Below, piece by piece: positions 4,800-55,013 of a stretch of 64,000 bases of DNA. Source of the DNA: Candidatus Moraniibacteriota bacterium (GTDB lineage Bacteria > Patescibacteriota > Minisyncoccia > Moranbacterales > GCA-2747515); the NCBI GenBank assembly GCA_046116545.1, contig CP175956.1, positions 1,025,734 to 1,089,733 of the forward strand, read 5' to 3'. Below the pieces are notes generated by a model. It was not told where the DNA came from, did not search any database, and saw only the letters and a list, made by a program, of their open reading frames with translations. The position numbers and the translations under genes are program-made. Every line of letters begins with the position of its first letter. Positions within the stretch are counted from its first letter, which is position 1.

Positions 4800-6509
4800 C
4801 TACTGATAAAACCCACTAGCATCAGAAGTAGCCGTATAAGTTACAGACCCTGTATAAACTCCTGAAGGTTGTGATGGTGATACATCTACTTTGTAACACA
4901 CATCAGTTGTTGTTGAAGTTGAATTATATGCTGTGTATGCTGCTATTGCTTGAGCTGTTTGTGGTACACCTGCATATTCTGCATCATCATTTGTTGTTCC
5001 TTCTTCACACAGATCTCCTGAGGTTGTCCATATGTTATTGAAGGTGTTATGAGTTGTATCATTTTGTGGAAATTGTATTACTGAGAAACCTAAACCTTTT
5101 GTTGTTGGAGCGTTCCAAGATTCTGTTACTTTTGTTGTTTGATCAAATTGTGTTAGGTCTGGTATTTCATCTGTATTATTTGAATGTACTAGGGTTGTAT
5201 TTGAAGCTCCATTATCATTTATCATTGATAAATAATAACCTTGGGTATCATTTGTTGTTACTATACAAGTTGATTCTCCTACTGCTGGAGTTCCTGCTAT
5301 TACTATTCCTGGGTTTGCTACTGTTCCTAGTATTACATCATAATCTCCTGTTGATCCATCTTTATCATAACAATCCATTGATAGAGTTGCATTTACTTCT
5401 ACATTTAGGTTTAGGTCATCTAGTCCTGATATTGTTCCATCTCCGTTTACAATGTAAGTTGTTGCGTGGTCTGTTGTGAAAATACACAACCCGTTTGTTA
5501 TTGTACATGTTGGAGTTGTATGTTGTGTCCACTGTGTATCTCCATCATTTTGGTATAGGATATCCATTTCCATTCCATTGTAAGCTTCGCTTACAGTTAT
5601 TTCTACTGTTACTGGATTTGAGAAATCTAGAGATATTCCTGGTACACCTAGTTTTACTGCTCCTGCAGCATTTTCTTCTGATTCTTGTACTGTTGCTATT
5701 ACGTTCTCTGTTATGAAACTTTGGAAATCAAATAATTGATTTGTTGCTTCTGTTATTATTGTGTTTGTTGGAAATATTGCATCTGTGTTGTTTGATTGGA
5801 ATGTTACTTGTACTTGGGTTGTTGTTTGTGTTGTGTTATCTATTGTTCCATTATCTATTGTTATGTAGCCGTCATTTACTGCATCTTGCATTTGGGTATT
5901 ATCTGGGTCTAAAATTACAATATCTAATGAATCATCAAAAACTGATACAGTTCCAGCATCATCAACATCAAATCCATCAAATCCAATATAAGTGCCAAGA
6001 CGTAAGGTAGTCTTAATCTCAATTGTATGTTCTTGTGCTGGATTTAAATTCAAAATTTGATAAACAACCAACCCCATAGTTAAAGTTGAATTAGTTGGTA
6101 TAGTATAAGATCCATGCAAAAACCCATCTACATATACATCATAACTTCCGCCAACATTAGATACACTATCTCTTGAACAATAAATCCGCAATAAATCAGA
6201 ATTAGAAAGATTAAATTTGACAGAATCACCAACAACATTAGTGCGCCATAAATTTCCATTTATCCAATTATTAACAGATCCTGTAAAAAACCAGCTTCCC
6301 TCCATTGTAAAGGGATTTGATGGAGAGCCTATATCAAGTCTTTGAGTTCCCACTTCTGGCGTAAGCAACTGTTGTCCTACTGAGACAGAAGTAGTCCTTG
6401 ATTCTGCAATAAAACTATCTTCAGCTACTGCATATGTTGATTGCGCTAAACTAAATAGCGAAACAATTATTATAATGCTTTGTGTAACTTTTTTTATATG
6501 TAACGTCAT
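4800..6509 (-). CDS. Secreted surface protein, paralog 1. It has a signal peptide, a lectin/CBM-like N-terminal beta-sandwich, and the conserved ~285-aa C-terminal domain shared with 28516..31230 and 52305..55013
   Basis: 569-aa ORF. The N-terminus MTLHIKKVTQSIIIIVSLFSLAQSTYA looks like a Sec signal. The C-terminus from TYIVNGDGTISG to the end is nearly identical to the other two paralogs. Confidence 0.7.
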   Translation of the reverse strand: MTLHIKKVTQSIIIIVSLFSLAQSTYAVAEDSFIAESRTTSVSVGQQLLTPEVGTQRLDIGSPSNPFTMEGSWFFTGSVNNWINGNLWRTNVVGDSVKFNLSNSDLLRIYCSRDSVSNVGGSYDVYVDGFLHGSYTIPTNSTLTMGLVVYQILNLNPAQEHTIEIKTTLRLGTYIGFDGFDVDDAGTVSVFDDSLDIVILDPDNTQMQDAVNDGYITIDNGTIDNTTQTTTQVQVTFQSNNTDAIFPTNTIITEATNQLFDFQSFITENVIATVQESEENAAGAVKLGVPGISLDFSNPVTVEITVSEAYNGMEMDILYQNDGDTQWTQHTTPTCTITNGLCIFTTDHATTYIVNGDGTISGLDDLNLNVEVNATLSMDCYDKDGSTGDYDVILGTVANPGIVIAGTPAVGESTCIVTTNDTQGYYLSMINDNGASNTTLVHSNNTDEIPDLTQFDQTTKVTESWNAPTTKGLGFSVIQFPQNDTTHNTFNNIWTTSGDLCEEGTTNDDAEYAGVPQTAQAIAAYTAYNSTSTTTDVCYKVDVSPSQPSGVYTGSVTYTATSDASGFYQ

Positions 6510-6575
6510 ATTTTTATTTTTATTTTTGTCTTACAGATTTTATTATATCACACATGTCTTTTCCTACAAAAGATA

Positions 6576-7262
6576 TTATTGTGATGACTGCAATCTTCCA
6601 TCTTTCAGCCAAACAGCCCTATCAACATATTTTTTATCATCTGGCTCATGTGTCACCATTATAATTGTCTGACCGTATTTATCTACTAATTCACGCATAA
6701 TACCCAAAACAACCGCCGCAGCCTCAGAATCCAAATTTGCCGTTGGTTCATCTGCAAATAGAATATCTGGCTTATTTACAATTGCACGTGCAATTGACAC
6801 ACGTTGTTGTTCACCTCCTGATAATTCTGATGGGAGATTATTTTCACGACCATGTAATCCTACTCTTTTAATAATTTCAAGCACTTCACTATTATATTGA
6901 GACTTTTTCTTTCCCAATGCCATCATGGGTAGTGCAACATTTTCATATAAATTTAACTCTGGAATCAAAGCGTAATCTTGGAACACATACCCAAGCATCT
7001 TTAGCCGAAACTCTGCGCGTTCTTTCTCTGATAATTTAGCAACATCTATACCGTCAATTTCAATATAACCTGAAGTTGGTCTATCAAGTAATGCAATTTG
7101 ATGCAAAAATGTTGACTTTCCAGAACCACTACGACCCATCAGTGCTACAAATTCACTTTTTTTTAATTGTATATCAATACCTTTAAGAGCATATACTGGA
7201 CTTGGTGAATCAGCTTTATATGTTTTAACAAGTTGTTTTGTTTGTAGAATAATTTTTTGCAT
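6576..7262 (-). CDS. ABC transporter ATP-binding protein (MacB/LolD-type), second system
   Basis: Walker A GRSGSGKST, signature LSGGEQQRVSIARAI and Walker B ILFADEPTANLD are present. Confidence 0.9.
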   Translation of the reverse strand: MQKIILQTKQLVKTYKADSPSPVYALKGIDIQLKKSEFVALMGRSGSGKSTFLHQIALLDRPTSGYIEIDGIDVAKLSEKERAEFRLKMLGYVFQDYALIPELNLYENVALPMMALGKKKSQYNSEVLEIIKRVGLHGRENNLPSELSGGEQQRVSIARAIVNKPDILFADEPTANLDSEAAAVVLGIMRELVDKYGQTIIMVTHEPDDKKYVDRAVWLKDGRLQSSQ

Positions 7263-7271
7263 AATTTTTTA

Positions 7272-8492
7272 TTATCGCATCAATGTAAGAATTTTTTTAC
7301 GAACCTCTTTTACTGCTGGAATAAATGAGCCTATAAGACCTGCCACAATAAAAAGCATAATACTCATACGCAATGCTTCTCTTTTAATTACTGGCACCAT
7401 ATCACCCATAGGAAAATCAATGGGATGTGCTCTGAAAAATCCAATTACACCAAAATTCATTAATAAAAATCCAAATATTACACCAAGTATAGTATAAAAC
7501 ATCCCTCTAATAACATAAGAATACATTACTGCTTTTTCTGGAATGCCTATCGCTTTTAAAATACCAATTTGCTTTCTTCTATTTACAATATCTACAAAAA
7601 TGATGATAAATATTACAAGACCTGCAACAAGCGAACCAATAATCCGCAATATCGAACCAATCATATCAAAAGACTTGTTAATTGTGGCACCCATTGATAA
7701 TTTATCGTTATAATCTGATATCTCATAATCTCCCAAGTTTATTTTTGAAAAATCAGCCACCGCTTCTTGTGATAAATGCTTATCAGTAAGCCGCACAATA
7801 ATTTCACTCGATTCATTTGTCGTGCCAAGGACTGAATTTAAATCATCTTGCAAAACAATCATCTTTGAATCAGTGTCAAAATTCTTTGTCTTATAAATTC
7901 CTACAATTTCATATTCTCTACTAATATCATTATTATATTCTGCTGTGATGACGTCACCTGTTCGTACACCCTCTAGATCCTCTGGAAATACTGAACTTCC
8001 ATACCCACCAGCCATATCTGCACCAAGTAAAGCTTTTCCATAATCATTATTTTCCAAGAATCTACCTTCGATAATATGTGATTTTAAATCAATAGACTCA
8101 TTTTCAACTTCTGGATTTACACCAATAACACCTGCCTCAAACTGTGCCACGTCCCTACCATCATTATATTTATCATTTTTAAGTGTAGCTCCTGTACGCA
8201 AATGTGCTGTCACACTACTCACATAATAAAAATCCTGTATTTCATCTATAAAATCATTTGTATTTTTGATATATTTATCTCCTATCTGTGGCTCAATAAT
8301 CACTTCACCATATTGATAATTAATTTTACCATTATCCATCGTAGCAGTGATCCCTTTAAATACAGCATCTACAAAAAGTAAATTCAAAAAAACAACAAGC
8401 ATGATAAGAACCGTCAACATAAGAGATCCTTTATCCCCCCGTAAAATTGTTTTAATAGCCAAGAATAATGACAATTTTGCATTACTAAACAT
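7272..8492 (-). CDS. ABC transporter permease, FtsX/MacB-like, second system
   Basis: 406-aa ORF with an N-terminal TM helix, a periplasmic domain, and a C-terminal FtsX domain (RRKQIGILKAIGIPEKAVMYSYVIRG followed by TM helices). Confidence 0.8.
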   Translation of the reverse strand: MFSNAKLSLFLAIKTILRGDKGSLMLTVLIMLVVFLNLLFVDAVFKGITATMDNGKINYQYGEVIIEPQIGDKYIKNTNDFIDEIQDFYYVSSVTAHLRTGATLKNDKYNDGRDVAQFEAGVIGVNPEVENESIDLKSHIIEGRFLENNDYGKALLGADMAGGYGSSVFPEDLEGVRTGDVITAEYNNDISREYEIVGIYKTKNFDTDSKMIVLQDDLNSVLGTTNESSEIIVRLTDKHLSQEAVADFSKINLGDYEISDYNDKLSMGATINKSFDMIGSILRIIGSLVAGLVIFIIIFVDIVNRRKQIGILKAIGIPEKAVMYSYVIRGMFYTILGVIFGFLLMNFGVIGFFRAHPIDFPMGDMVPVIKREALRMSIMLFIVAGLIGSFIPAVKEVRKKILTLMR

Positions 8493-8515
8493 ACTGCTCG
8501 AATTTGTAAATGATA

Positions 8516-9511
8516 TTATTCCACATTTTCTAATTTTACCACCTTATCACCAACGCTCAATCCTGAAATTATTTCAATATTTTCATCTCCAATAATACCA
8601 GTTTCAAAATATTTTTTTACAAATGGATCTTTCTTATTATTTTCTGAATTCATCACATATACAAAATATCCTTCATCATCTTTTTGAGTAATATCTCTCA
8701 ATACGATTGTTACGTTATTTTTATGTTCAATAACAATATCCACTTCAGCATTCATTCCATCTAAAATAGCAATATTTTCTTTATTATCAATATCTATAAT
8801 CGTCTTATAATATGTGCTATTTTGATCAACTGTACTACCTGTATCCATCGATGCAAACGTACCTGCTATAGCGTTATTTGGATATGCATCAAAAACAATA
8901 TATGCTTTATCACCTTTAGAAACCTTTGCAACATCAACTTCTGGTAATAACCCTTCTACCCGTAATGATTCTAAATCAATGATTTTCATAATAATACCTG
9001 ACGCGACCTCTCCAACTCGTGCATTTTGTTCAATTATCACACCATCAATTGGCGATACAATCGTTGTTTTAGCTGCCTGTGCATATATCTCATTCAATGT
9101 TTGTCGTGATTGCTCTGTAGCTTTTTTAATGCTCTCGCGTTCTTCTGGCTTCAACACATCCCATTTACGTCTAGCTTGTTGCTCTGCCAACTCTGCACGT
9201 TCTACTGCAAGTTTTGCATTATTAATTTGTGCATAAATTGATTTTTTGTCCAAACGAAAAAGCTCTTGACCTTCTTCTACATAATCATTCACTGATACAT
9301 CTACAGAATTGATCAATGTCGGTAACTCTGTAGAAATATCCGCATATACTTCTGGTGTCATTTGAGCATTAATATCAATTGTCTTTTCTACATCACCACT
9401 AGCAATAATTACTTCAGTATAAGATTGTACAATATTACGTGACCGAAAAAAGAAAATACCGCCCACAACGAGAATCAAAACAACAATAACAGTAATAATT
9501 TTATTTTTCAT
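8516..9511 (-). CDS. HlyD-family periplasmic adaptor, second system
   Basis: N-terminal TM anchor, a lipoyl-like hairpin and a coiled-coil region. It is homologous to 3652..4710 (shared motifs such as ARRKWD..KPEE and VSPIDG). Confidence 0.8.
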   Translation of the reverse strand: MKNKIITVIVVLILVVGGIFFFRSRNIVQSYTEVIIASGDVEKTIDINAQMTPEVYADISTELPTLINSVDVSVNDYVEEGQELFRLDKKSIYAQINNAKLAVERAELAEQQARRKWDVLKPEERESIKKATEQSRQTLNEIYAQAAKTTIVSPIDGVIIEQNARVGEVASGIIMKIIDLESLRVEGLLPEVDVAKVSKGDKAYIVFDAYPNNAIAGTFASMDTGSTVDQNSTYYKTIIDIDNKENIAILDGMNAEVDIVIEHKNNVTIVLRDITQKDDEGYFVYVMNSENNKKDPFVKKYFETGIIGDENIEIISGLSVGDKVVKLENVE

Positions 9512-9651
9512 ATTTTTTTTAAATTGAATTAATCAACTATTATAAGTATAACATTAGACATTTCATAAAAAAACCCCTACCATGTAATATATATAATTCA
9601 TTAAGCATCTTTATTATTCATTATCTTAATGATAAAGTAATTATCAATATT

Positions 9652-10113
9652 ATGCAAATATCTTCTGACAATAATACTGCTGCACTAGTGCAAAAAGAAA
9701 GTCGTGTCGCAACACTCTTCATATATACAATTGCCGAAAGAATGGGCTTACAGCTCACAGATATTCGATGTTTAGATCATCTAATGGAAAATCAATCAGC
9801 AACAGCTGGCGATATTGCCCGAGTTACTGGACTCACTACAGGAGCGGTTACAGCAATGATTGACCGTTTGGAAAAAATAAATTTGGTAAGGCGTACAGCA
9901 GACGAAAAAGATAGACGAAAAACTATTATCATTCTATACAATAAGAATTTTCATAAATCAAATATTATAACTAATTTTTTTACAAAAAATGTAACAGAAT
10001 TGCTGAATATGTATTCTACAGAAGAACAAGAATTAATTGCCGATTGGAATAAAAAAATGACAATACTTTTTCAAGATGAAATTAAACAACTAAACTCTGT
10101 CAAATCAAAATAA
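9652..10113 (+). CDS. MarR-family transcriptional regulator, transcribed divergently from efflux operon 2
   Basis: Winged-HTH segment LTDIRCLDHLMENQSATAGDIARVTGLTTGAVTAMIDRLEKINLVRRTADEKDRRK, which is typical of MarR regulators. Confidence 0.75.
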   Translation: MQISSDNNTAALVQKESRVATLFIYTIAERMGLQLTDIRCLDHLMENQSATAGDIARVTGLTTGAVTAMIDRLEKINLVRRTADEKDRRKTIIILYNKNFHKSNIITNFFTKNVTELLNMYSTEEQELIADWNKKMTILFQDEIKQLNSVKSK

Positions 10114-10123
10114 TTATCTATTA

Positions 10124-11257: not shown

Positions 11258-11265
11258 ATTTTCTA

Positions 11266-11832: not shown

Positions 11833-11836
11833 TTGC

Positions 11837-12574: not shown

Positions 12575-12610
12575 ACAACTTATTATATATCATCTACAAT
12601 TAATTACAAA

Positions 12611-25871: not shown

Positions 25872-28202
25872 TTAGACTATAATATCCTTTCTAACGATTC
25901 CATCTTTAACACGTATTTCACCACGCTTTTCGAATTGTTTACCACTTATAGGCTGTCCTTTTGCCTTAATATTATATAATCCATTATCTGCAAGAAGATA
26001 ATACCTACCAATTGAATCTGTTACAGCAAATCCCTCTTTATAACTAGTTTCTTTTTTATAGAGATTAACAACAGCAAATGGAATTGGCTTTCCATCACTT
26101 GTTTCCACTACACCATATTTCTTTTTCTTAAAGAATTTTTGAAATATAAATAACACAACGTAGATACCAAGTACAACAAAATTAAATATTGACGGGTAAA
26201 AATAAGTAATTATTATAGTTGCACTAAATCCTATAACATAAATTGCTGTAAAAAAGTACTTTTTAAATATTGACCAGTTAGAATTATATTGTTTCTCCTT
26301 CTTAACAGCATATTCCTTCCAATCAATATTATCAGATTTCATAGCAATATTTGAAAGCATAACGTGATCTTCATTTATTTCAACTTCTCCTCCATCATAA
26401 ATATTTCCATACAATTCGTCATTAGAATCATTAGTCATTAATTTATAATCTTTTTTAGCTACGTTAATAATGTAATTTCCTGGACTTACTAAAAATCCAA
26501 ATCTACCATCTTTATCAGAATATGTTGTTGCCATCTCCTTGCCCATTGTATCCAAAAGTACAATCTTTACAGCTGGGATAGGAACTCTTGTTTCACTATC
26601 AAATACAACTCCCCAATTTCTTTCTTCCTTACGCCTTCCTATTATTCCAAATAATTCCAAAAATTGTAAAAATACAGTACTACTAAATGCTCCTGGCATA
26701 GCTGCAAATAACGGTATCGAAGATCCAGCTAGTGCAGCCGTTGTCCCAGCTACAGCTCCTACAGTAGCAGCAGTTTGATATGTTCTCTTAGTTTCCTCTG
26801 GGGCTATAGTTTCTCTAGCTTTTTCTTTTTTTACACTCTCACCAACATACGAATCATCCGCTTCATCTAACTCTTCTTCCAATTTATCTTCTAGTTCTTC
26901 TTCATCTACATCAGTAGAACCACCTGAAATATCACAAGCTCCTATATAATCACCATGATCCAAATGCTCTTGAAGTGATAATTCTGCAATTGAAATAGTA
27001 TCACCCTTGTGACAAATAATAATCTTTTTACCTTCAACTTGTGTACATGCACCAACAGTAGCTCCTTGATCTAAATAAGTCTGCAATTCTGATTGCAAAA
27101 CAATTATTGTAATTCCATCTGAACAGATTTCAACTGTGGGATCTGGAATACTTACAGTATTTGTAGTTGCACTTTTTGAACTTGAATACTCACTTTCATA
27201 ATCCTCACCATCAAGAGAATATTTAACCTTAAATGTATATTCTGTTCCCGAATTAAGTCCAGTTAATCCCAAAACCACCTCGCCACTACCATCTGTTTTT
27301 TTACTAAAATCAACTGTAAATGTATTTCCGGTTAATTCATTTTTTATATGAACAATAAAATCCAAATCTTCATCTTGTCTGTCACTAACTTCAACAATAA
27401 TATCTAGTGAACTAGTTGTGATATTATCAATGCTTTTAATTTCAGGATCAGACAAATCTTCTTCATCTTTAATAGTCGTTATAGTTTTTGAATTCGAATA
27501 CTCACTAAAATTCAAACTTCCATTTCTAGTATATTTAACCTTAAATGTATATTCTGTATCAGGATCCAAACTATCCATATTAAGTATCACATTACTTCCA
27601 GTAATATTTTTTGTCATTTGTACAGTATATGAACCTCCGCCGCTAACTTCAACAATAAAATCCATAAAACTTCCTATAAAACTAGGATCAATTGCTACAT
27701 TCAAGTCTACTGTATTAATAGTAACATCATCAATAGAACTAAGAACTGGTGCGTTAATTAATGTTGTAGCACTGTCCATATCAGAATCACCACTAAAAAC
27801 TCCACCCGGCCTAGAATATCTCACATTAAACTCATATTCCGTTCCCGGATCTAGCCCTGTCACATTTAAAATAGTTTGTGCATTAGAGTCAGTTCCCTGT
27901 GTATAATTAGCACTTGAGACATCTCCTGAAACAACATTTGTAATCGTCACAACATAATCAAGTATTTCATTTGCATAACCACTGTATGTATTTTCAACTT
28001 CAGTAAGTAAATCTAGGGAATTTGTAGTTACATTATCTATACTAATAATAGATGGAGTTGCTGGAACAACAACCAAACTATTATCTACAGTCACACCTAA
28101 ATTTTGACCAGCGTTCTGAGTAGCTGCCTCAACATTAGAAAATACACCTACAATAACAAAAAATAAAATTGTTATAATGACTTTTTCAAAAATTTTTTTC
28201 AT
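25872..28202 (-). CDS. Large multi-domain membrane protein. Domain order: signal peptide, 3 Fn3-like repeats, a duplicated Cys/His motif, an acidic linker, a TM helix, a CarboxypepD_reg-like domain, a TM hairpin, and a second CarboxypepD_reg-like domain
   Basis: Three ~95-aa repeats (SIDNVTTNSLDLL…, SIDDVTINTVDLNV…, SIDNITTSSLDIIV…). Motifs ICSDGITIIVLQSELQTYLDQGATVGAC and ICHKGDTISIAELSLQEHLDHGDYIGAC. Regulatory-domain-like segments RVPIPAVKIVLLDTMGKEMATTYSDKDGRFGF and GKPIPFAVVNLYKKETSYKEGFAVTDSIGRYYL. Confidence 0.6.
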   Translation of the reverse strand: MKKIFEKVIITILFFVIVGVFSNVEAATQNAGQNLGVTVDNSLVVVPATPSIISIDNVTTNSLDLLTEVENTYSGYANEILDYVVTITNVVSGDVSSANYTQGTDSNAQTILNVTGLDPGTEYEFNVRYSRPGGVFSGDSDMDSATTLINAPVLSSIDDVTINTVDLNVAIDPSFIGSFMDFIVEVSGGGSYTVQMTKNITGSNVILNMDSLDPDTEYTFKVKYTRNGSLNFSEYSNSKTITTIKDEEDLSDPEIKSIDNITTSSLDIIVEVSDRQDEDLDFIVHIKNELTGNTFTVDFSKKTDGSGEVVLGLTGLNSGTEYTFKVKYSLDGEDYESEYSSSKSATTNTVSIPDPTVEICSDGITIIVLQSELQTYLDQGATVGACTQVEGKKIIICHKGDTISIAELSLQEHLDHGDYIGACDISGGSTDVDEEELEDKLEEELDEADDSYVGESVKKEKARETIAPEETKRTYQTAATVGAVAGTTAALAGSSIPLFAAMPGAFSSTVFLQFLELFGIIGRRKEERNWGVVFDSETRVPIPAVKIVLLDTMGKEMATTYSDKDGRFGFLVSPGNYIINVAKKDYKLMTNDSNDELYGNIYDGGEVEINEDHVMLSNIAMKSDNIDWKEYAVKKEKQYNSNWSIFKKYFFTAIYVIGFSATIIITYFYPSIFNFVVLGIYVVLFIFQKFFKKKKYGVVETSDGKPIPFAVVNLYKKETSYKEGFAVTDSIGRYYLLADNGLYNIKAKGQPISGKQFEKRGEIRVKDGIVRKDIIV

Positions 28203-28372: not shown

Positions 28373-28444
28373 GGTCCGGTCGTCTAGTGGTTAGGACGCC
28401 AGGTTTTCATCCTGGTAACCGGAGTTCGATTCTCCGTCGGACTA
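28373..28444 (+). tRNA. tRNA-Glu (anticodon UUC)
   Basis: Manual fold: acceptor GGTCCGG/TCGGACT (G·U at both ends), D arm GTCT…GGAC, anticodon stem CCAGG/CCTGG with loop TTTTCAT, T arm CGGAG-TTCGATT-CTCCG and discriminator A. The 5' half closely resembles E. coli tRNA-Glu. Confidence 0.85.
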
Positions 28445-28464
28445 CAAATGTGCACTATTTTTAA

Positions 28465-28515: not shown

Positions 28516-31230
28516 CTATTGATAATACCCACTAGCATCAGAAGTGGCTGTGTATGTCACAGATCCAGTATAAACTCCTGAAGGTTGTGATGGTGATACA
28601 TCTACTTTGTAACATACATCAGTTGTTGATGAAGTTGAATTATATGCTGTGTATGCTGCTATTGCTTGAGCTGTTTGTGGTACACCTGCATATTCTGCAT
28701 CATCATTTGTTGTTCCTTCTTCACACAGATCTCCTGAGGTTGTCCATATGTTATTGAAGGTGTTATGAGTTGTATCATTTTGTGGAAATTGTATTACTGA
28801 GAAACCTAAACCTTTTGTTGTTGGAGCGTTCCAAGATTCTGTTACTTTTGTTGTTTGATCAAATTGTGTTAGGTCTGGTATTTCATCTGTATTATTTGAA
28901 TGTACTAGGGTTGTATTTGAAGCTCCATTATCATTTATCATTGATAAATAATAACCTTGGGTATCATTTGTTGTTACTATACAAGTTGATTCTCCTACTG
29001 CTGGAGTTCCTGCTATTACTATTCCTGGGTTTGCTACTGTTCCTAGTATTACATCATAATCTCCTGTTGATCCATCTTTATCATAACAATCCATTGATAG
29101 GGTTGCATTTACTTCTACATTTAGGTTTAGGTCATCTATTCCTGATATTGTTCCATCTCCGTTTACAATATAAGTTGTTGCATGGTTTGTTGTGAATGTA
29201 CATATTCCGTTTGTTACTGTACATGTTGTATGGGTATTCCATGTTACTTCTCCTTCTAGTTGTGAAAGGACTTCTAGTTCCATATCATTGTAAGCTTCGC
29301 TTACAGTTATTTCCATTGTTATATTTTGTGAAAAAGATAGGTTTTCATTTGGTATACCTAGTCTTACTGCTCCTATTGCATTTGGATGATCTCCTTTTTC
29401 TTCTGATAGTGTATTCTCTGTTATGAAGTTTTCAAAGTTAAAGTTTTGATTCAAGCTTTCGGTTATTACTGTATTATTTGGGAATATCGCATTTGTTGTA
29501 TTTGATTGGAAGGTTACTTGTACTTGGGTTGTTGTTTGGGTTGCGTTGTCTATTGTTCCGTTATCTACTGAGATGTAGCCATTTGTTTCTAAATCACTCA
29601 TATCTGTTGTACTTGGATCTGGAATTGTTTGATTTGTTAATGGATTTGTTGTGAAACTTTGTTCTTCTCCATATACGATTCCTTTTTCATTTGTTGCTTT
29701 TGCTCTTATGTAATATGTTGTGTTTGGCGTTAGGCTTGTTAGGTCACAAGAGTATGTTCCTAATGCTCCTACACCTGCGGTGCAGTCATCAGTGTAAGTT
29801 TCACTTACTGTTCCCCATTGGATTTCTCTTGTTGGATTCTCTGTTCCTATATCTGTTATATTTGCATTTCCTATTGCCGATGTAGTTCCTATATTATTTG
29901 TTGTGTTTGTTATTGTTTGAGCTTTGTTTGTTAGGAAGTGGATGTGGATTGCACCTCTATTTATTCCTCCTGCGTCATCATCAGGAACACCAACTGCAAT
30001 ATCTTGAATACCATCATCATTAACATCACCTATATATGCAATATTTCTTCCATAACGATCATCATTTACAAGTGTTGGACCATTTATTGTATTAGAATTA
30101 ACTTCAACCGTTGATTTTACCGAACCATCCATATTCATAAAATGAATATGGATTGTGCCACGATCTGTACCAGCTGCATCATCCAAATAAGCTCCTACTG
30201 CAATATCTTCTGCACCATCATTATTAAGATCTCCTATACCCGCAACTGACACACCATAAAGATCACTGTCTGCAAGATTTGGACCATTTGTTGTTGTACT
30301 ATCAATTTTTATAGTTGAATCAATAGAGCCATCTGTATTCATAAAATGAATATAGATTGCACCACGATCCGTTCCATTTGTATCATCACGATAAGCTCCT
30401 ACTGCAATATCTTGTACACCATCATTATTAAGGTCTCCTATACCAGTAACTGCTATACCATAACGATCATCATTTACAAGTGTTGGACCATTTGTTGTTG
30501 TGTCATTTATTTCTACGGTTGAATCAATAGAGCCATCTGTATTCATAAAGTGAATATATATTGTTCCTCTATTTTCACCACCCGCATCATCACGATAAGC
30601 ACCTGATGCAATATCTTGCACTCCATCACCATTAATGTCTCCTATACCCGCAACTGTTACACCATAATAATCATAATCTACAAGATTTGGACCATTTGTT
30701 GTTGTGTCATCTATTTCTACAGTAGAATCAATAGAGCCATCTGTATTCATAAAGTGAATATGAACAGCTCCAGAATCTACATTCCCACCTGAATCATCAC
30801 GATAAGCTCCTACTGCAATATCTTGTACACCATCATTATTAAGGTCTCCTATACCGGTAACTGATATACCATAACGATCACCATTTACAAGTGTTGGACC
30901 ATTTGTTGTTGCATCATTTATTTCTACAGTAGAATCAATAGAGCCATCTGCATTCATAAAATGAATATATATCGCACCACGTTCCGCTCCGTTTGCATCA
31001 TCAAAATACGCACCCACTGCAATATCTTGTACACCATCATTATTAAGGTCTCCTATACCCGCAACTGTTACACCATAATAATCAGAATCTAATAAAACTG
31101 GACCATTTGTAGTCAGATCATTAATCTCCACAGTAGAATCAATAGATCCATCTCCTACAGCAAGTGTTGTTTGTGTATAAAAAAGTGTAGCAATAAATGC
31201 TACCGAAAGTATTATAATATTATTTTTCAT
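28516..31230 (-). CDS. Secreted surface protein, paralog 2. Domain order: signal peptide, 7 FG-GAP repeats (integrin-alpha-like beta-propeller), an Fn3-like domain, and the conserved C-terminal domain
   Basis: 904 aa. A ~68-aa unit YG.SV.GIGDLNNDGVQDIAVGAY.DD.GG…G.IHIHFMN.DGS occurs 7 times. An Fn3-like segment reads YSCDLTSLTPNTTYYIRAKATNEKG. The C-terminal ~285 aa are nearly identical to paralogs 1 and 3. Confidence 0.75.
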   Translation of the reverse strand: MKNNIIILSVAFIATLFYTQTTLAVGDGSIDSTVEINDLTTNGPVLLDSDYYGVTVAGIGDLNNDGVQDIAVGAYFDDANGAERGAIYIHFMNADGSIDSTVEINDATTNGPTLVNGDRYGISVTGIGDLNNDGVQDIAVGAYRDDSGGNVDSGAVHIHFMNTDGSIDSTVEIDDTTTNGPNLVDYDYYGVTVAGIGDINGDGVQDIASGAYRDDAGGENRGTIYIHFMNTDGSIDSTVEINDTTTNGPTLVNDDRYGIAVTGIGDLNNDGVQDIAVGAYRDDTNGTDRGAIYIHFMNTDGSIDSTIKIDSTTTNGPNLADSDLYGVSVAGIGDLNNDGAEDIAVGAYLDDAAGTDRGTIHIHFMNMDGSVKSTVEVNSNTINGPTLVNDDRYGRNIAYIGDVNDDGIQDIAVGVPDDDAGGINRGAIHIHFLTNKAQTITNTTNNIGTTSAIGNANITDIGTENPTREIQWGTVSETYTDDCTAGVGALGTYSCDLTSLTPNTTYYIRAKATNEKGIVYGEEQSFTTNPLTNQTIPDPSTTDMSDLETNGYISVDNGTIDNATQTTTQVQVTFQSNTTNAIFPNNTVITESLNQNFNFENFITENTLSEEKGDHPNAIGAVRLGIPNENLSFSQNITMEITVSEAYNDMELEVLSQLEGEVTWNTHTTCTVTNGICTFTTNHATTYIVNGDGTISGIDDLNLNVEVNATLSMDCYDKDGSTGDYDVILGTVANPGIVIAGTPAVGESTCIVTTNDTQGYYLSMINDNGASNTTLVHSNNTDEIPDLTQFDQTTKVTESWNAPTTKGLGFSVIQFPQNDTTHNTFNNIWTTSGDLCEEGTTNDDAEYAGVPQTAQAIAAYTAYNSTSSTTDVCYKVDVSPSQPSGVYTGSVTYTATSDASGYYQ

Positions 31231-31444: not shown

Positions 31445-32041
31445 CTAAAATTTTTCTGACTCTAACACTATTAATAACAATTTCTTTTTTGCTCTTCTTA
31501 ATAACGTCCCAACACTACTAGTTGGTTTATTTAAAATTTCACTTATTTCAGTATATGATTTGTCTTCAAAATATCTTAATGTTATGACTTGTGCATAATT
31601 TTCTGGTAATTGAGCTACAGCATCTTCTAATTCACCCCTTAACTCAATTTGAAACCATTCATCTAAAGTCGTACTGGTTTTATCTGATATCTCTATATTA
31701 TCCTTTACTGAATCAACCTCTTCTATTGATATAGTTTTCCTTTTATTACTTCTATTAAACCAATTCATTGTTTCATTATGAGCAATTCTATAAATCCATG
31801 ATGAAAACTTTTTTTCACAATCAAATGAATCGATATGCTTTAATGTTTTTATAAAAACATTTTGAACTAAATCCTTCGATTCATCTGAATTATTCACAAA
31901 ACGCATTACGTAATAAAATAATTTTTTCTCATACCTTTTTATTATCACATCAAAACATGCAGTATTTCCATTTTGAACCATTCTCACTATTTCATTATCA
32001 TCAACACTTTCATCACAACCAAAAATTTCTTTTTTATTCAT
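31445..32041 (-). CDS. RNA polymerase ECF-type sigma-70 factor
   Basis: Region 2 (DLVQNVFIKTLKHIDSFD…FSSWIYRIAHNETMNW) and region 4 (SYTEISEILNKPTSSVGTLLRRAKKKL). Confidence 0.8.
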   Translation of the reverse strand: MNKKEIFGCDESVDDNEIVRMVQNGNTACFDVIIKRYEKKLFYYVMRFVNNSDESKDLVQNVFIKTLKHIDSFDCEKKFSSWIYRIAHNETMNWFNRSNKRKTISIEEVDSVKDNIEISDKTSTTLDEWFQIELRGELEDAVAQLPENYAQVITLRYFEDKSYTEISEILNKPTSSVGTLLRRAKKKLLLIVLESEKF

Positions 32042-48366: not shown

Positions 48367-50709
48367 ATGGATCAAAAAAATAAAAACTGCATAAATAAGG
48401 GGTTTCAAATGGATATGAATATATCTAATATTTTTGTTGCTAAAAATGCAAAAAAACGAGCTTTTGTCGAACAGTTTGAACATAAAAGTGTTAACTTCAC
48501 ACAAAAAAACTTAGGCACTATATTCGGTTTTTTCATTGTTCGTGACTCTTCTCCAACATCAGAAAACATAGTTAACTTCTTGTCATCTGAAGTGAAAAAG
48601 AAGTATTTTTCTCCCGTGACAAAAGATGCTGATGAAAAATTTGAAATAACACTCCACCACATCAATAGAATACTAGAAGAAATAGCTAACATAGGGAATA
48701 TTGATTGGATAGGCACAATAGATAGTGCTATTTGTGTAATAAATAATACATCAATCACATTCAGTGTTACTGGTAATGCTCACATATTATTATTACGAGA
48801 CAACGCTCTTATGGATATAAGTGAGGGCCTAGCATCAAAAGAAGCCTCCGAATACCCACTAAAAACATTTATAGATATTTCAAGTGGTGAACTTTGTCCT
48901 GATGATAAATTGATTATAACCTCTCCTGAATTATTAGATTATGTATCTTTTGCTGAATTGCAAAAAAATGCAATTCATTTCGGACATGACAATTTCATAC
49001 AATTTATACAAACAGTATTAACAAATGAATGTTCCATGGCAACAGCTACAGTTATAGAGATAAACCAAAAAGAACAATCGCTAACAAATATTCAAGTAAC
49101 TAAACAGCTACCCTCCAATGAGCCTGTAAATGCATTTGGTGCTACTGCCTTTGAGAAAAATGACACAAATCTAAAGAATGCCGATATAGATACTGACGAA
49201 TTACTAAAAGACACTGAACGAGAAATTGAAGATGAATGGACTGACGAGAAAGGGCACATCCATATACAAGGCACTGACGAAGAAATTCCAGAACAAACTA
49301 TTCTAGAAACAACTCAAGAAAAAATAAATGATCTGAGTGAACAACTACAAGAATTCAGTTCAAAAAAATTCAAAAAAATTTCCAAATCTATTGCTGCATT
49401 AAGAGCTAAACAAACTAACGAATCTTTACAAACAGATCAACCAGAAGACTACGAAAATACTTCTATCGACTATATTGAGGATGATTTTGATGATGAAGTC
49501 ATTGGTACAGATATCAATGAATCTAAAACTACTGGTTATATCGAAGAAGATTCAATTAATAACGAACCAAAAAAAACTAAACAACTTGTTTATACAGTAT
49601 GTACTGTAACAAAAAATGCCACAAAAAATACTACTGTAAAATGTGTTCGACTAATTACAAATTTACGAAATAAACTGACAAAAAATTCAGTTGATGCCTC
49701 CACACAAGAAATTAGCAAATATACAGAAATAGAGAAAAAATCTATTCTGCCAAGTTTTCACCACATCACAAATCTTTGGCACACTATGAGCACTCAAACA
49801 AAATTAATTTCTATAGGTATATTGTTATTCATAATATTAGCACCTATATTTTTCATGATGATTTCAAGTAAAAGTGGTGAAAAAGTTATTGAAGAACCTC
49901 AAAAAGATACGTCCACACAAGAACAACTCCCAGAAGAAAAACCCATTGAACCAATTTCTTCAAACACAATAGAAGATGCCACTATATTACTCGAAGATTC
50001 TAACATAGTGTCAACATTATTCATGAAAGATTCTCAGTTAGGAATATCAAAACAAGCTATAACACTACTTAATGGAACTAAAAAAGACACATTCAAAATC
50101 CCTAGTGATGCCGGAGAAATTAAACTTGCTACAAATATGGATGACTTAGATTTAATATTTTTTTTAACAACATCTGATAAAGTATATTCTTTCAGTCCAA
50201 TTGTCAAAAAATTTACCCAACAAAAAAACATCCCCTCCATCAAAGCTTCTGACGTAGATACCCTTAATTCATTCATGACTTATATATACACAACCGATGA
50301 TAAACAAATCAAAAGATACACCAGACAAGAAAATGGCTTTGTGGAAGGAGAAAATTGGTTAACAGCGGATGTGAATCTATCCAAAACTACAACACTTGCA
50401 ATTGATGATGACATTTATACTGCTCGTGATGGTAAAATTTCCAAATTTTCTTCTCACAAAAAAGCACCTTTCTCACAAGACCCCACAATACAAAATGCAT
50501 TTTTAATATATACAACACCCGACACATCAAATATGTGGATTTTAGACAAAGAGCAAAAAACAGTATTTAAAACAAAAAAAGAATCTGGTAAAAAGTTAGA
50601 TGAATTCGTACATGATGATTTTGCAAATGCAACATCATTAACAATTGATGAAAAAAATAATAAAATTGTAATATCTACACCAGACAAAATCCTATCTTTC
50701 AAAATATAG
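48367..50709 (+). CDS. Hypothetical 780-aa protein: a PP2C/SpoIIE-like phosphatase-like N-terminal domain, an acidic linker, a single TM helix, and a ~280-aa extracytoplasmic C-terminal domain
   Basis: The PPM-like segment is IDSAICVINNTSITFSVTGNAHILLLRDNALMDISE…ATATVIEI. The TM helix is LISIGILLFIILAPIFFMMI. The true start may be the internal Met (MDMNISN). Confidence 0.4.
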   Translation: MDQKNKNCINKGFQMDMNISNIFVAKNAKKRAFVEQFEHKSVNFTQKNLGTIFGFFIVRDSSPTSENIVNFLSSEVKKKYFSPVTKDADEKFEITLHHINRILEEIANIGNIDWIGTIDSAICVINNTSITFSVTGNAHILLLRDNALMDISEGLASKEASEYPLKTFIDISSGELCPDDKLIITSPELLDYVSFAELQKNAIHFGHDNFIQFIQTVLTNECSMATATVIEINQKEQSLTNIQVTKQLPSNEPVNAFGATAFEKNDTNLKNADIDTDELLKDTEREIEDEWTDEKGHIHIQGTDEEIPEQTILETTQEKINDLSEQLQEFSSKKFKKISKSIAALRAKQTNESLQTDQPEDYENTSIDYIEDDFDDEVIGTDINESKTTGYIEEDSINNEPKKTKQLVYTVCTVTKNATKNTTVKCVRLITNLRNKLTKNSVDASTQEISKYTEIEKKSILPSFHHITNLWHTMSTQTKLISIGILLFIILAPIFFMMISSKSGEKVIEEPQKDTSTQEQLPEEKPIEPISSNTIEDATILLEDSNIVSTLFMKDSQLGISKQAITLLNGTKKDTFKIPSDAGEIKLATNMDDLDLIFFLTTSDKVYSFSPIVKKFTQQKNIPSIKASDVDTLNSFMTYIYTTDDKQIKRYTRQENGFVEGENWLTADVNLSKTTTLAIDDDIYTARDGKISKFSSHKKAPFSQDPTIQNAFLIYTTPDTSNMWILDKEQKTVFKTKKESGKKLDEFVHDDFANATSLTIDEKNNKIVISTPDKILSFKI

Positions 50710-50803
50710 CAACTATTTACAAAAACTATTTTTTATGTTATAGTGAAATTTAAAGTTATTTTACAAAAATATAAATCTATCAATAACTAGGAGGAATTCA
50801 AAA

Positions 50804-51034
50804 ATGCCACTTCCCAATGTTTTTTTAGCATCTTTTAAAGGTTTAAAGCTTGCTTTTTTTACGATTGCATTCGCGTATGGACTATTTGCATTAACGCTAA
50901 CAGTAATTCATTTAGCGACTACACCCATGGCAGTAGATTGGTTTAACATATCTGATAATTTTGTCATGAAACTAAAAAACATTGAACATTCAGTCACTCA
51001 ACTAACAGAGATTAAAGATGGAAATTCTCATTGA
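50804..51034 (+). CDS. Small membrane protein (76 aa)
   Basis: Strong Shine-Dalgarno sequence AGGAGG 8 nt upstream, with one or two TM helices. Confidence 0.35.
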   Translation: MPLPNVFLASFKGLKLAFFTIAFAYGLFALTLTVIHLATTPMAVDWFNISDNFVMKLKNIEHSVTQLTEIKDGNSH

Positions 51035-51148
51035 AGAAATTATGTTGATGATAGATTAGCCTTTCCAGGTGAAATACTAATAGCTCAATACCCCTAAAAT
51101 TCCAACACGCCATATAATTATCAATTATATGGCGTGTTTTATTTTTGT

Positions 51149-52195
51149 TTATTTCTCAATATTTATACTTACTTTTTCATTATCCTCTTCGGCACTTACT
51201 CTTTGATCCTTCTTGGCATCTACTATTTTTGTTGATTCTACATTCACAAACTTAACACTTTGATTACTTCTCGCATTGTTTCTTTTTTTACTGTTTTGTT
51301 TTTTAACGATATGTTTCTTATCTCTACTATTTATAATCTTCAATAAAACAAGTATACAAACAATCACAATTATCGCAACTAGTGGGAAAAAATAACCCAT
51401 AGTAAAATCTATTTTCATCCTAGTTGCCCCCTCACCATCTACAAAAACTGTGGTTGCCTTATACAACCCAAATAATGACGGAACATCTTCAACTATAATA
51501 AACTCAAATATTTTTCCCGGAAATACAAAATGTTTTTCATACTCATATAAATTTTCTTTTTTTGTAAAAATATTTCTTACTACAATTTCACCATATGGTA
51601 CGTAATGTATATTTCCTGTATTTTCAAATTCAGCCGCATACTCAACCGTACCAAATGATAATAATGGAATATCAAATTTATTTACACGACCACTCGCATG
51701 TGTATCCCCCTTCACATTCACTAGTACATGCACTCCAACTTGACCATTAACCTGCACTGTATTATCTGAATCATCCTCGATTCTGAATATAGCAGCACCT
51801 CTATGACTTCCTATAACAGCATCATTGGGTGTATTCACAGTAAATACTATCTCTCGCTTCTCTCCATCAGTTAATTTGATATACTCTTCATCTACACTAA
51901 GCCAATTACTAAGACCTGTTTGTTCATCTTTATCATCAATGAGAACTAAATCATTATTTTCTCCCAAAACATAATCTTTTGCATCTAAAATAATTTCCTG
52001 TTCTTTTCCTGAAATATTTTTTACATTAATTACAAACTGTTGTGATTCACCTGCATTTACATCAAAAACAATAGCCGTTTGATCAACTTCAACGCCTAAG
52101 TTACCTGCAAATGAAATCTGCGGCAAAACCACCAGAAACCCACTCATTACCAAATACTGAACTACTTTATAAAATTTCATATTTTTTACTATCAA
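51149..52195 (-). CDS. Cell-surface protein with an N-terminal signal, beta-rich ectodomain, C-terminal TM anchor and Lys-rich tail (DUF916/DUF3324-like architecture)
   Basis: 348 aa. It has a signal peptide and a C-terminal hydrophobic helix FFPLVAIIVIVCILVLL followed by a K/R/N-rich tail. The family assignment rests on architecture only. Confidence 0.45.
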   Translation of the reverse strand: MIVKNMKFYKVVQYLVMSGFLVVLPQISFAGNLGVEVDQTAIVFDVNAGESQQFVINVKNISGKEQEIILDAKDYVLGENNDLVLIDDKDEQTGLSNWLSVDEEYIKLTDGEKREIVFTVNTPNDAVIGSHRGAAIFRIEDDSDNTVQVNGQVGVHVLVNVKGDTHASGRVNKFDIPLLSFGTVEYAAEFENTGNIHYVPYGEIVVRNIFTKKENLYEYEKHFVFPGKIFEFIIVEDVPSLFGLYKATTVFVDGEGATRMKIDFTMGYFFPLVAIIVIVCILVLLKIINSRDKKHIVKKQNSKKRNNARSNQSVKFVNVESTKIVDAKKDQRVSAEEDNEKVSINIEK

Positions 52196-52304
52196 TTACT
52201 TACTCTTTCAAATATTTTCAAGTATACCATACATTCAATAAAAACTAATCACCCATTTAAATCCAAATTTAAATAGGTAATTAATTATTTAAGTTTAATT
52301 TTAT

Positions 52305-55013
52305 CTACTGATAAAACCCACTAGCATCAGAAGTAGCAGTATAAGTTACTGAACCTGTATATACTCCTGAAGGTTGTGATGGTGATACATCAACTTTGTA
52401 ACATACATCAGTTGTTGTTGAAGTTGAATTATATGCTGTGTATGCTGCTATTGCTTGAGCTGTTTGTGGTACACCTGCATATTCTGCATCATCATTTGTT
52501 GTTCCTTCTTCACACAGATCTCCTGAGGTTGTCCATATGTTATTGAAGGTGTTATGAGTTGTATCATTTTGTGGAAATTGTATTACTGAGAAACCTAAAC
52601 CTTTTGTTGTTGGAGCGTTCCAAGATTCTGTTACTTTTGTTGTTTGATCAAATTGTGTTAGGTCTGGTATTTCATCTGTATTATTTGAATGTACTAGGGT
52701 TGTATTTGAAGCTCCATTATCATTTATCATTGATAAATAATAACCTTGGGTATCATTTGTTGTTACTATACAAGTTGATTCTCCTACTGCTGGAGTTCCT
52801 GCTATTACTATTCCTGGGTTTGCTACTGTTCCTAGTATTACATCATAATCTCCTGTTGATCTATCTTTATCATAACAATCCATTGATAGAGTTGCATTTA
52901 CTTCTACATTTAGGTTTAGGTCATCTATTCCTGATATTGTTCCATCTCCGTTTACAATATAAGTTGTTGCATGGTTTGTTGTGAATGTACATATTCCGTT
53001 TGTTACTGTACATGTTGTATGGGTATTCCATGTAGTAGATCCTTCTAGTTGTGAGAGAACTTCTAGTTCCATATCATTGTAAGCTTCGCTTACATTCATT
53101 TCTATTGTTATATCATTTGAGAAACTTAGGTTTTCATTTGGTATACCTAGTCTTACTGCTCCTATAGCATTTGGGTGTTCTACTTTTTCACTTGTTAAAG
53201 TATTTTGTGTTATGAAGTTTTGGAAGTTGAAGAGTCCTGCACTTGCTTCAGTTATTACAGTACTTGTTGGAAATATTGCATTTGTTGTTGGTGATTGGAA
53301 AGTTATTTGTTCATTTGTTGTTGTTTGTGTTGTATTGTCTAAAGTTCCATTATCTACTGTTATGTAACCATTTGTTGTTAGATCATCCATATCTATTGTA
53401 TCTGGATCTATAACTATTTGGCTTGTTAATGCATTTGTTGTAAAACTTTGTTCTTGACCATATACTATTCCTTTTTCATTTGTTGCTTTTGCTCTTATGT
53501 AATATGTTGTGTCTGGAGTTAAATCAGTCATATCACAGGAGTAACTTCCTGTGCCTCCAGTTCCTGCGGTGCAGTCATCAGTGTAAGTTTTACTTACTGT
53601 TCCCCATTCTATTTCTCTTGTAGGATTTTGAGTTCCTATATCTGTTATTTCTGCGTTTCCTATTGCTGTTGTTGTTCCTATTGTTGAAGTTGTATCTGTT
53701 TGAGTTTGAGCTTTGTTTGTTAAGAAATGGATGTGGATTGCTCCTCTGTCTATTCCTCCTGCGTCATCATAACGCGCAGTAACAATAAGATCTTGAACGC
53801 CATCATTATTAAGATCACCTATATTTGTGATGGACGCACTATAAAGATCTGCATCAGAAAGCACTGGACCATTTGTAGTATTATCATTAATTTCTACTGT
53901 TGATTTAACTGAACCATCCGTATTCATAAAGTGAATATGTATCGTACCACGATTTGCACCACCAGCATCATCAAGATATGCACCTACTGCAATATCTTGT
54001 ACACCGTCACCATCGAGGTCCCCCATATTTACAATAGACTCACCATAATAATCCGAGTCTGCTAAATCAGGTCCATTTACTGTTAAATCATTAATCTCTA
54101 CTGTTGATTTAACCGAACCATCTGTATTCATAAAGTGAATATGTATCGTACCACGACTTGTACCATTCAAACTATCATAAACTGCACCTACGGCAATATC
54201 ATTTACACCATCATTATTAAGATCACCTATATTTGCAACAGATTCTCCATATTGATCACCATCGAGAGTAGGTCCATTTATAGTTAAATGATTAATTTCT
54301 ATAGTAGAATCTATAGAACCATCTGTATTCATGAAATGTATGTGTACCGTACCATTATTAATTCCACCAGTATCATCACCAGTTGCTCCAACCATAATAT
54401 CCTCAACACTATCATTATTAAGATCGCCCAAATTTTCAATAGATATACCATAAAGATCACCATCAGACAATGTTGGACCATTTATAGTGCTATCATTAAT
54501 CTTTACAGTTGAATCAATTGAACCATCTGTATTCATAAAGTGAATATATACTGCACCCTGATCTGTACCTCCTGTGTCATCACGATATGATCCAACCGTA
54601 ATATCTTGTACACCATCATTATTCAAATCATTCAAATTTGCAATAGCATATCCATATCTATCACCATCTGAAAGCACTGGTCCATTTATTGTTAAATGAT
54701 TTATTTCTACAGTGGATTTAACAGAACCATCTATATTCATGAAATGAATATGTACTGCACCGCGATCTGTACCTCCTGCATCATCATAAAATGCCCCAAT
54801 AGCAATATCATCCACACCATCACCATCAAGATCACCAATGTTTTCAACAGCTGATCCATATGAATCCGAATCATTAAGCACTGGTCCATTTGTTGTTAAA
54901 TCATTTATTTCGATAGTTGAGTCTATTGAGCCGTCTCCTGCTGCAAAAGTTGATTGTGAACAAAAAAGTGTAGCAATAAATGCTATTGAAATTATAATTA
55001 GATTATTTTTCAT
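52305..55013 (-). CDS. Secreted surface protein, paralog 3. Domain order: signal peptide, 7 FG-GAP-like repeats, an Fn3-like domain, and the conserved C-terminal domain
   Basis: 902 aa. It has the same architecture as 28516..31230. The last ~370 aa are nearly identical to paralog 2, and the last ~285 aa are nearly identical to paralog 1. Confidence 0.75.
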   Translation of the reverse strand: MKNNLIIISIAFIATLFCSQSTFAAGDGSIDSTIEINDLTTNGPVLNDSDSYGSAVENIGDLDGDGVDDIAIGAFYDDAGGTDRGAVHIHFMNIDGSVKSTVEINHLTINGPVLSDGDRYGYAIANLNDLNNDGVQDITVGSYRDDTGGTDQGAVYIHFMNTDGSIDSTVKINDSTINGPTLSDGDLYGISIENLGDLNNDSVEDIMVGATGDDTGGINNGTVHIHFMNTDGSIDSTIEINHLTINGPTLDGDQYGESVANIGDLNNDGVNDIAVGAVYDSLNGTSRGTIHIHFMNTDGSVKSTVEINDLTVNGPDLADSDYYGESIVNMGDLDGDGVQDIAVGAYLDDAGGANRGTIHIHFMNTDGSVKSTVEINDNTTNGPVLSDADLYSASITNIGDLNNDGVQDLIVTARYDDAGGIDRGAIHIHFLTNKAQTQTDTTSTIGTTTAIGNAEITDIGTQNPTREIEWGTVSKTYTDDCTAGTGGTGSYSCDMTDLTPDTTYYIRAKATNEKGIVYGQEQSFTTNALTSQIVIDPDTIDMDDLTTNGYITVDNGTLDNTTQTTTNEQITFQSPTTNAIFPTSTVITEASAGLFNFQNFITQNTLTSEKVEHPNAIGAVRLGIPNENLSFSNDITIEMNVSEAYNDMELEVLSQLEGSTTWNTHTTCTVTNGICTFTTNHATTYIVNGDGTISGIDDLNLNVEVNATLSMDCYDKDRSTGDYDVILGTVANPGIVIAGTPAVGESTCIVTTNDTQGYYLSMINDNGASNTTLVHSNNTDEIPDLTQFDQTTKVTESWNAPTTKGLGFSVIQFPQNDTTHNTFNNIWTTSGDLCEEGTTNDDAEYAGVPQTAQAIAAYTAYNSTSTTTDVCYKVDVSPSQPSGVYTGSVTYTATSDASGFYQ

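Follow-up and report, generated by a model that had tools for sequence, protein, structure and literature searches.

Three minus-strand genes, w1, w2 and w3, share a near-identical C-terminal module in a 64,000-nucleotide (nt) stretch of a Candidatus Moraniibacteriota genome (assembly GCA_046116545.1, contig CP175956.1, positions 1,025,734 to 1,089,733), hereafter the window. They probably belong to a family of secreted, modular surface proteins in which a GAIN-like joint would cleave itself, a C-terminal domain (C-dom) would act as the anchor, and the module is homogenised among paralogs by gene conversion. A first-pass annotation, made from the sequence of the window, had recognised the three open reading frames (ORFs) with their shared near-identical 3' parts as direct repeats about 23.7 kb apart. 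Its coordinates and spacing hold: the repeats, located at 4788, 28504 and 52293, follow one another at intervals of 23,716 and 23,789 nt. What it overlooked is that the step in identity adjoins a predicted autoproteolytic site, and that the conserved tail appears to be a separate, putative anchor domain. It had also taken the family to have three members, a number that proved far too low.

Protein alignment of w1, w2 and w3 delimits a common C-terminal module of about 370 residues, of which the last ~220 are 99% identical in all three. The run of some 285 near-identical codons described initially is correct for w2 and w3; for the three copies together it shrinks to about 220. At the DNA level, the last 660 nt show a pairwise divergence of 1.4-2.3% (about 98% identity), and within them lies a 443-nt core without a single difference among the three copies (100% identity; Table 1). 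This core is the most recently homogenised tract. The longest identical runs between pairs of copies measure 443-471 nt (permutation p<1e-4). A 60-nt example offered in the first-pass annotation does have 2 mismatches in 60, with its partner at 28577-28636 after correction of a one-base slip, and the antisense ORFs that it cited exist and differ at 2-4 of 142 residues. Homology among the three genes ends at the stop codon, and no further fragments of the module were found elsewhere in the window. The tract had been thought to be anchored at the shared 3' end, yet it is internal: 14 sites vary in the last ~110 nt (the last 36 codons), almost always at a synonymous third position.

On the upstream side, the 459 nt preceding the HA/T codons diverge by 30% between w1 and w2/w3 and by 18% between w2 and w3, and w2 and w3 remain 91% identical for about 200 nt further upstream. 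Divergence along the genes is therefore not uniform, and nucleotide alignment places the proposed step near TYIVNGDGTISG ('HATTYIV'). The step lies no more than about 20 codons from the predicted cleavage site in the source genome, and near that site in a second genome (genome C). It marks where the most recent conversion tracts end, near the boundary of domain and cleavage. In a further genome (genome B), homogenisation reaches about 90 residues further upstream, which speaks against the association; a conversion boundary strictly locked to the cleavage site was rejected because genome B breaks that rule. The homogenisation boundary follows the constant anchor region loosely.

Selection at the protein level alone is insufficient to explain these tracts, since the core is identical at synonymous sites as well, while the equally conserved last 36 codons have diverged synonymously. 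Variants are shared in patches among seven module DNAs, and five paralogs yield 262 four-gamete-incompatible site pairs (PHI-like permutation test, p about 5e-4). Among strains, a 10,276-bp contig (GCA_008633345.1) differs from the window at 28 positions, all of which fall in one 129-bp patch of w1 where the window copy of w1 matches w2 and w3 at 28 of 28. A second assembly (L014) has the same 28 mismatches against the window, that is, the same paralog-1 sequence. Either conversion replaced this patch as a discrete tract, or one of the assemblies mis-threaded a repeat here. The remaining evidence for conversion (synonymous sites, identity within and between genomes, head orthologues, mosaicism) is independent of the strain contigs.

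The pattern across genomes is similarly telling. The C-dom is 0.84-0.95 identical within genomes and 0.58-0.70 identical between them (three genomes compared). Across genomes, heads that share a type are 50-56% identical over 340-540 residues, and heads of different types cannot be aligned. Because the heads have such cross-genome counterparts, the fusions of head and module are older than the species splits, and it is within each genome that the module has been homogenised. The copies show what gene conversion and concerted evolution predict: discrete tracts that are identical even at synonymous sites, mosaic incompatibility, and a module that clusters by genome while other parts of the proteins cluster by type. 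We conclude that recurrent, non-reciprocal recombination keeps the DNA of the C-terminal fragment and part of the stem near-identical among the paralogs within each genome, and that the heads are ancient lineages that diverge separately. The identical runs, the PHI-like test, the patchy variants and the strain patch bear out the initial proposal of gene conversion between paralogous surface-protein genes. The cassette-style diversification that was proposed along with it is not supported: no swapping of heads came to light, the heads are old lineages, and neither silent cassettes nor a recombinase were found in the window. It is the constant module that is homogenised, rather than anything that is diversified.

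A crossover between the direct repeats would delete 23.7 kb with valS, tsaD, tRNAs or the 23S and 5S genes. With essential genes between the repeats, only non-crossover events are likely to persist. A plausible reason for homogenisation may be that all paralogs have to fit one partner; long identical tracts also favour further conversion.

The window genes are part of a larger set. The ~370-residue module occurs on other proteins of the source genome, giving a family of at least eight, and the five or more further members carry heads that include LamG, a Gly-rich domain, EPTP, FISUMP and LVIVD. Related genomes hold 11 members (in 1.18 Mb) and 15 members (in 1.55 Mb); a search for the same C-terminal module on other N-terminal domains, as the first-pass annotation advised, returned many head types. 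The family takes up about 2% of a 1.2-1.5 Mb genome. In w2 the head is an FG-GAP array (E=3e-30) followed by an Fn3-like spacer, and the w3 head is 70% identical to it; FG-GAP propellers with Fn3 had been predicted for both, with seven blades, where we count six clear 68-residue units. The w2 protein is identical to one from a 1,286,331-bp Candidatus Moraniibacteriota contig (P0006); this lineage belongs to the Patescibacteria, or candidate phyla radiation (CPR). The full length of w1 is covered only by its strain orthologue (P0001, 98% identical), and its head, read as lectin- or CBM-like in the first-pass annotation, has no sequence match in Pfam, NCBIfam or PDB.

Table 1. Positions in the window of the three paralogs, their parts, and associated features.
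Feature	Position	Strand	Remarks
w1 (paralog 1)	4800..6509	minus	ORF of 569 aa; N-terminal signal peptide
w1 head	~5916-6428	minus	orphan, ~170 aa
w1 stem	~5448-5915	minus	GAIN/ZU5-like
w1 C-terminal fragment	4803-5462	minus	
w2 (paralog 2)	28516..31230	minus	ORF of 904 aa; N-terminal signal peptide
w2 head	~29929-31152	minus	six 68-aa FG-GAP units
w2 spacer	~29641-29913	minus	Fn3-like
w2 stem	29164-29631	minus	
w2 C-terminal fragment	28519-29178	minus	
w3 (paralog 3)	52305..55013	minus	ORF of 902 aa; architecture as w2
w3 stem	52953-53420	minus	
w3 C-terminal fragment	52308-52967	minus	
H-A-T codons	w1 5460..5468; w2 29176-29184; w3 52965-52973	minus	predicted cleavage Ala349/Thr350 in w1
C-dom	w1 4803..5414; w2 28519-29130; w3 52308-52919	minus	~205-215 aa; putative envelope anchor
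Identical core	w1 4908-5350; w2 28624-29066; w3 52413-52855	minus	443 nt
Patch in w1	4935..5063	minus	129 bp; all 28 strain differences
DUF916/WxLIP-type membrane protein	51149..52195	minus	directly downstream of w3; WxLIP_PGBD E=0.002

The near-identity and the strain patch could in principle be artefacts of assembly or polishing, produced by collapsed or mis-threaded repeats. The hazard that the first-pass annotation foresaw is genuine: five of 12 related loci (L002, L003, L004, L005 and L007), on contigs of metagenome-assembled genomes (MAGs) from several assemblies, stop inside the module, and near-identical tracts of 0.45-0.66 kb break or scramble short-read assemblies of such genomes. 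One 3,240-bp contig (L015; JGI 3300085459) is 100% identical to w3 over 2,228 bp, then takes on the variants of another paralog, and finally matches the tail of w2 plus the flank downstream of it at 99.7%; either the assembly joined it wrongly or it is a true recombinant. This chimeric contig weighs against gene conversion, as do the origin of the strain-patch evidence in short-read MAG assemblies, in which repeats can be mis-threaded, and the possibility that repeat polishing inflated identity in the window assembly itself. Nevertheless, unique sequence borders each window copy at either end, and synonymous variants in the last 110 nt tell the copies apart; further paralogs from this genome retain variants of their own inside the core. 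In addition, the paralog-1 sequence is the same in two assemblies, and homogenisation within genomes recurs in three independent genomes. We consider an artefact unlikely. As a separate matter of assembly quality, clear family members occur on contigs binned under proteobacterial names, Micavibrio sp. for L001 and L005 and uncultured Gammaproteobacteria for L008; these are probably mis-binned CPR contigs.

Recent duplication with domain shuffling, in which one young C-terminal cassette spread onto many heads separately in each genome, would account for very diverse heads on a common module, and the many different tails that follow the stem across Patescibacteria do imply shuffling over long timescales. 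We disfavour it and judge it improbable as an explanation of the near-identity: the same head types occur with the module in three genomes, with heads at 50-56% and C-dom at 58-70% identity, so that the fusions predate the splits; the identity is patchy and mosaic, not uniform; and the strain pair differs in a single patch. Programmed variation of the pilE/pilS, vlsE or mgpB type, in which paralogs serve as cassettes that alter an expressed adhesin, is likewise improbable. Several paralogs do share a recombination substrate, one metagenome contains a chimeric contig, and the 5' ends of w2 and w3 (signal peptide and ~100 nt upstream), at 70-84% identity, could act as a second, weaker homology arm. 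However, all copies are complete ORFs with signal peptides, no truncated silent cassettes were found in the window, and homogenisation affects the constant part. A site-specific recombinase, a reverse transcriptase or an invertible element was not encountered in the window either, and the heads are stable enough to have orthologues across genomes. A diversity-generating retroelement was rejected, there being no reverse transcriptase and the variable part not being C-terminal.

To return to the homogenised module, sequence searches of Pfam, NCBIfam and PDB gave no useful match for the stem together with the C-dom, and a profile search of PDB found nothing. The AlphaFold model of the module consists of two beta domains. 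Modelled by itself (pLDDT 87, pTM 0.81), the stem is predicted to be a GAIN_B-type beta-sandwich with a fold matching GAIN, ZU5 and FIIND, and most of its structural matches are domains known for autoproteolysis at H-x-S/T. A family-invariant motif, C..C.F.T.H-A-T.Y, resembles the GPS motif, and in the model its H-A-T occupies the turn of two residues that joins E119-126 to E129-133, the last two strands. Neither alignment A2 (17 family members) nor alignment A4 (22 members) shows any variation in H-A-T. A hidden Markov model search with the stem profile recovered 678 cluster representatives, and H-[A/T/S]-T (HAT, HTT or HST) is kept in 50 of 57 distant relatives of the stem. The heads of these relatives are beta-propellers, Fn3, TIG and similar domains, and their tails after the motif are PG_binding_1 (16/57), a transmembrane (TM) helix, Lys/Tyr-rich basic tails, Fn3 with a 'KKCFLWWCW' terminus, or the C-dom. 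These tails appear to be interchangeable envelope anchors. The order of signal peptide, adhesion domains, MAIN-like domain (the bacterial counterpart of GAIN) and anchor was observed as well.

Several distant stem proteins (P0248, P0266, P0298, P0305 and P0314, also P0289, P0261 and P0304) end in '...KKCFLWWCW' after an Fn3-like segment, and variants of the C-terminus in such proteins read 'CYLFSRWLCF' and 'WWNP[AF]TWF'. The '...KKCFLWWCW' end may represent a signal, not described before, by which Patescibacteria sort or anchor proteins at their C-terminus.

More than 760 proteins match a profile of the C-dom, most of them 'hypothetical' secreted proteins from Patescibacteria that stand alone at about 215 residues. 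Genes for such small C-dom proteins lie in conserved operons with a DUF916-type protein of ~320-350 residues at loci of Saccharibacteria, Nomurabacteria and Moraniibacteriota (L012, L016 and L017). This operon protein begins with a signal peptide, continues with beta domains and ends in a TM helix and a basic tail. The neighbour of w3 in the window is built the same way, with Lys/Arg in its tail, and is the putative membrane partner of the C-dom. PF06030 (WxLIP_PGBD, DUF916) is matched by 38 of 43 members of the partner family (best E 4.7e-10), DUF3324/WxLIP_HBD (PF11797) by none of the 43, and fn3_5 is found in 19 of the 43 instead. Among the close homologues recovered, the partner gene is present at one copy per genome. 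Like WxL-type clusters, these loci encode a DUF916-family membrane protein together with the C-dom. In the Saccharibacteria and Nomurabacteria operons, a protein of ~430-450 residues is encoded at the end (L012 3375-4676; L017 8459-9811); its features are a signal peptide, a Cys-rich beginning, an Fn3-like segment and a TM helix at the C-terminus, and it matches no family.

Each protein starts with a Sec signal peptide, which is followed by a variable head for ligand binding and, in many cases, an Fn3-like spacer; a domain of GAIN/ZU5 fold and MAIN type and a conserved C-dom of about 215 residues complete it. The head is an FG-GAP array, LamG, FISUMP, LVIVD, EPTP or, in w1, an orphan domain. 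In the mechanism that we propose, the GAIN-like domain would cut itself between the Ala and Thr of the H-A-T turn, and the new N-terminal strand, TTYIVNG, would stay embedded in the sandwich, leaving the head held non-covalently. The C-dom would then hold the complex on the envelope via the DUF916/WxLIP-type membrane protein, a role that falls to the WxL domain in Firmicutes. A fuller version, which we put forward tentatively, is an undescribed 'socket-and-head' display of Patescibacteria: a WxL-like C-dom on a single DUF916 socket, a self-cleaving joint, 8-15 heads, conversion that keeps the post-cleavage fragments identical so that every head would fit that socket, and shedding by force.

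Several points pull in the other direction. The top structural match of the stem, and three of its top five, is ankyrin ZU5, which does not cleave. Fold and motif are the whole basis on which self-cleavage between Ala and Thr of H-A-T is predicted, and the stem is assigned to the MAIN type by fold, motif and architecture. The C-dom and its small Saccharibacteria homologues have no Pfam match at E<=10, including the WxL model (PF13731), and both Trp-x-Leu motifs are absent from the C-dom, where the corresponding conserved positions read GYYL and TYTA. Within the window, the DUF916 neighbour occurs at w3 only. The suggested anchor role draws on synteny and on analogy. We do not file the C-dom as a WxL member; by analogy, it may only work like one.

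The anchoring step alone has a rival of its own, in which the C-dom is a polymerising, pilin-like subunit: the small C-dom proteins would form a fibre by strand complementation with assistance from DUF916, and the large paralogs would be tip or side adhesins. In its favour, small C-dom genes are numerous, their operons also encode a membrane protein of two beta-sandwich domains, and in Firmicutes a strand of DUF916 is predicted to insert into WxL (PMC10599100). Against such a fibre, no usher-like or sortase gene is present in the operons seen. We regard it as doubtful, though a serious contender for that step.

The proposed arrangement combines features of systems described separately. Microbial MAIN domains cleave themselves experimentally at HX(S/T) with fragments that stay associated, for example in YfkN of Bacillus subtilis, and MAIN proteins consist of a signal peptide, adhesion or enzymatic domains, MAIN, and a surface anchor (Brogan & Rudner, bioRxiv 10.64898/2026.05.12.724683). 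The survey in that preprint, a PSI-BLAST search of RefSeq Select, does not mention Patescibacteria (bioRxiv 10.64898/2026.05.12.724683). The stem shares with MAIN the GAIN_B/ZU5-like beta-sandwich, H-x-(S/T) in the turn before the last strand, and the same domain order. It differs in its motif, H-A-T as opposed to H-F-S, and in its anchors, which are PG_binding_1, basic tails or the C-dom where MAIN proteins have mainly sortase/LPXTG or SLH. The Patescibacteria proteins are also smaller (60-100 kDa, against a MAIN mean of 158 kDa) and expanded to 8-15 paralogs per ~1.2-1.5 Mb genome, and cleavage is here predicted only. Eukaryotic GAIN (adhesion G-protein-coupled receptors) and ZU5-UPA/FIIND (UNC5, PIDD, NLRP1, CARD8) likewise have H-x-S/T between the last two strands and two conserved Cys on the preceding strands, as in the GPS motif. 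Identity to these in structural alignments is, however, at most 9-24%, and the proteins described here have no helical GAIN_A and no seven-TM or death-domain partner.

The WxL-domain proteins of Firmicutes have DUF916 proteins as their partners in the membrane, and WxL clusters always consist of a small WxL protein, a large one with N-terminal binding domains and a C-terminal WxL, and a DUF916-DUF3324-TM 'WxLIP' (PMC9772566, PMC10599100). The loci described here likewise combine small secreted proteins made of the C-terminal domain only, large proteins with N-terminal binding domains, and a DUF916 membrane protein. They depart from WxL clusters in that the C-dom lacks a WxL profile match and Trp-x-Leu, the partner lacks DUF3324/WxLIP_HBD, no LPxTG protein was seen, and a GAIN-like domain is not reported in large WxL proteins.

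For the recombination itself, a close parallel exists in Helicobacter pylori, where the full-length adhesin paralogs babA/babB/babC and sabA/sabB have near-identical terminal segments and undergo non-reciprocal recombination of the RecA type, with mosaics and strain patches. Near-identical terminal segments at separate loci, mosaic genes and patches that differ from strain to strain are common to both. In contrast to the bab and sab genes, only the C-terminal constant module is homogenised here, across at least eight genes with unrelated heads, and no evidence of expression switching was found.

As a phenomenon, gene conversion is ordinary, and concerted evolution in adhesin families is well known; the family is nonetheless a clear natural example of concerted evolution in a reduced genome. 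What appears to be new is the identity of the module, namely a MAIN/GAIN-like, putatively self-cleaving joint in Patescibacteria, together with a putative WxL-like anchor system and the multi-head expansion. A literature search on Patescibacteria with WxL, and on Moranbacteria with gene conversion, found nothing relevant. Our assignment would extend microbial GAIN-like (MAIN) domains to Patescibacteria and would link them to WxL/WxLIP-like anchoring, previously regarded as essentially Firmicutes-specific. Host attachment by CPR bacteria is largely unexplained and most of their surface proteins are unannotated; the family supplies concrete candidates, with many heads on one anchor. If the 'socket-and-head' system is real, it would offer a direct molecular handle on how episymbionts attach to hosts and are released from them.

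The neighbourhoods of the three genes differ. Directly upstream of w2, on the same strand, lies a gene for an ECF-type sigma-70 factor (31445-32041), a possible dedicated regulator; a promoter and terminator scan around w2 gave nothing above shuffled expectation. Just downstream of w2, past a tRNA-Glu gene (28373-28445), a protein of 776 residues with Fn3, Ig-like and CarboxypepD_reg domains (25872-28202) is likely a surface protein outside the family. The w1 gene is flanked by two MacB-type ABC export modules (219-4710 and 6576-9511), one with two MacB_PCD/FtsX permeases, an ABC ATPase and HlyD, the other with an ABC ATPase, FtsX and HlyD. A MarR regulator (9652-10113) lies near these modules, and the arrangement is kept in the strain contigs. 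The near-equal spacing of 23.7 kb is apparently coincidental, the genes in between being unrelated, and a larger segmental duplication was rejected as its origin because the intervals have no other repeat in common.

The window further contains housekeeping genes, three tRNAs and bacterial 23S and 5S rRNA genes. The 23S match (55782-59018) spans 3,237 nt against a model of 2,925 nt, which points to about 300 nt of insertions, and the 5S gene is at 55443-55550. No 16S gene lies within about 5 kb upstream of the 23S gene, so the rRNA genes are unlinked. Insertions in 23S rRNA and unlinked rRNA genes are typical of CPR genomes.

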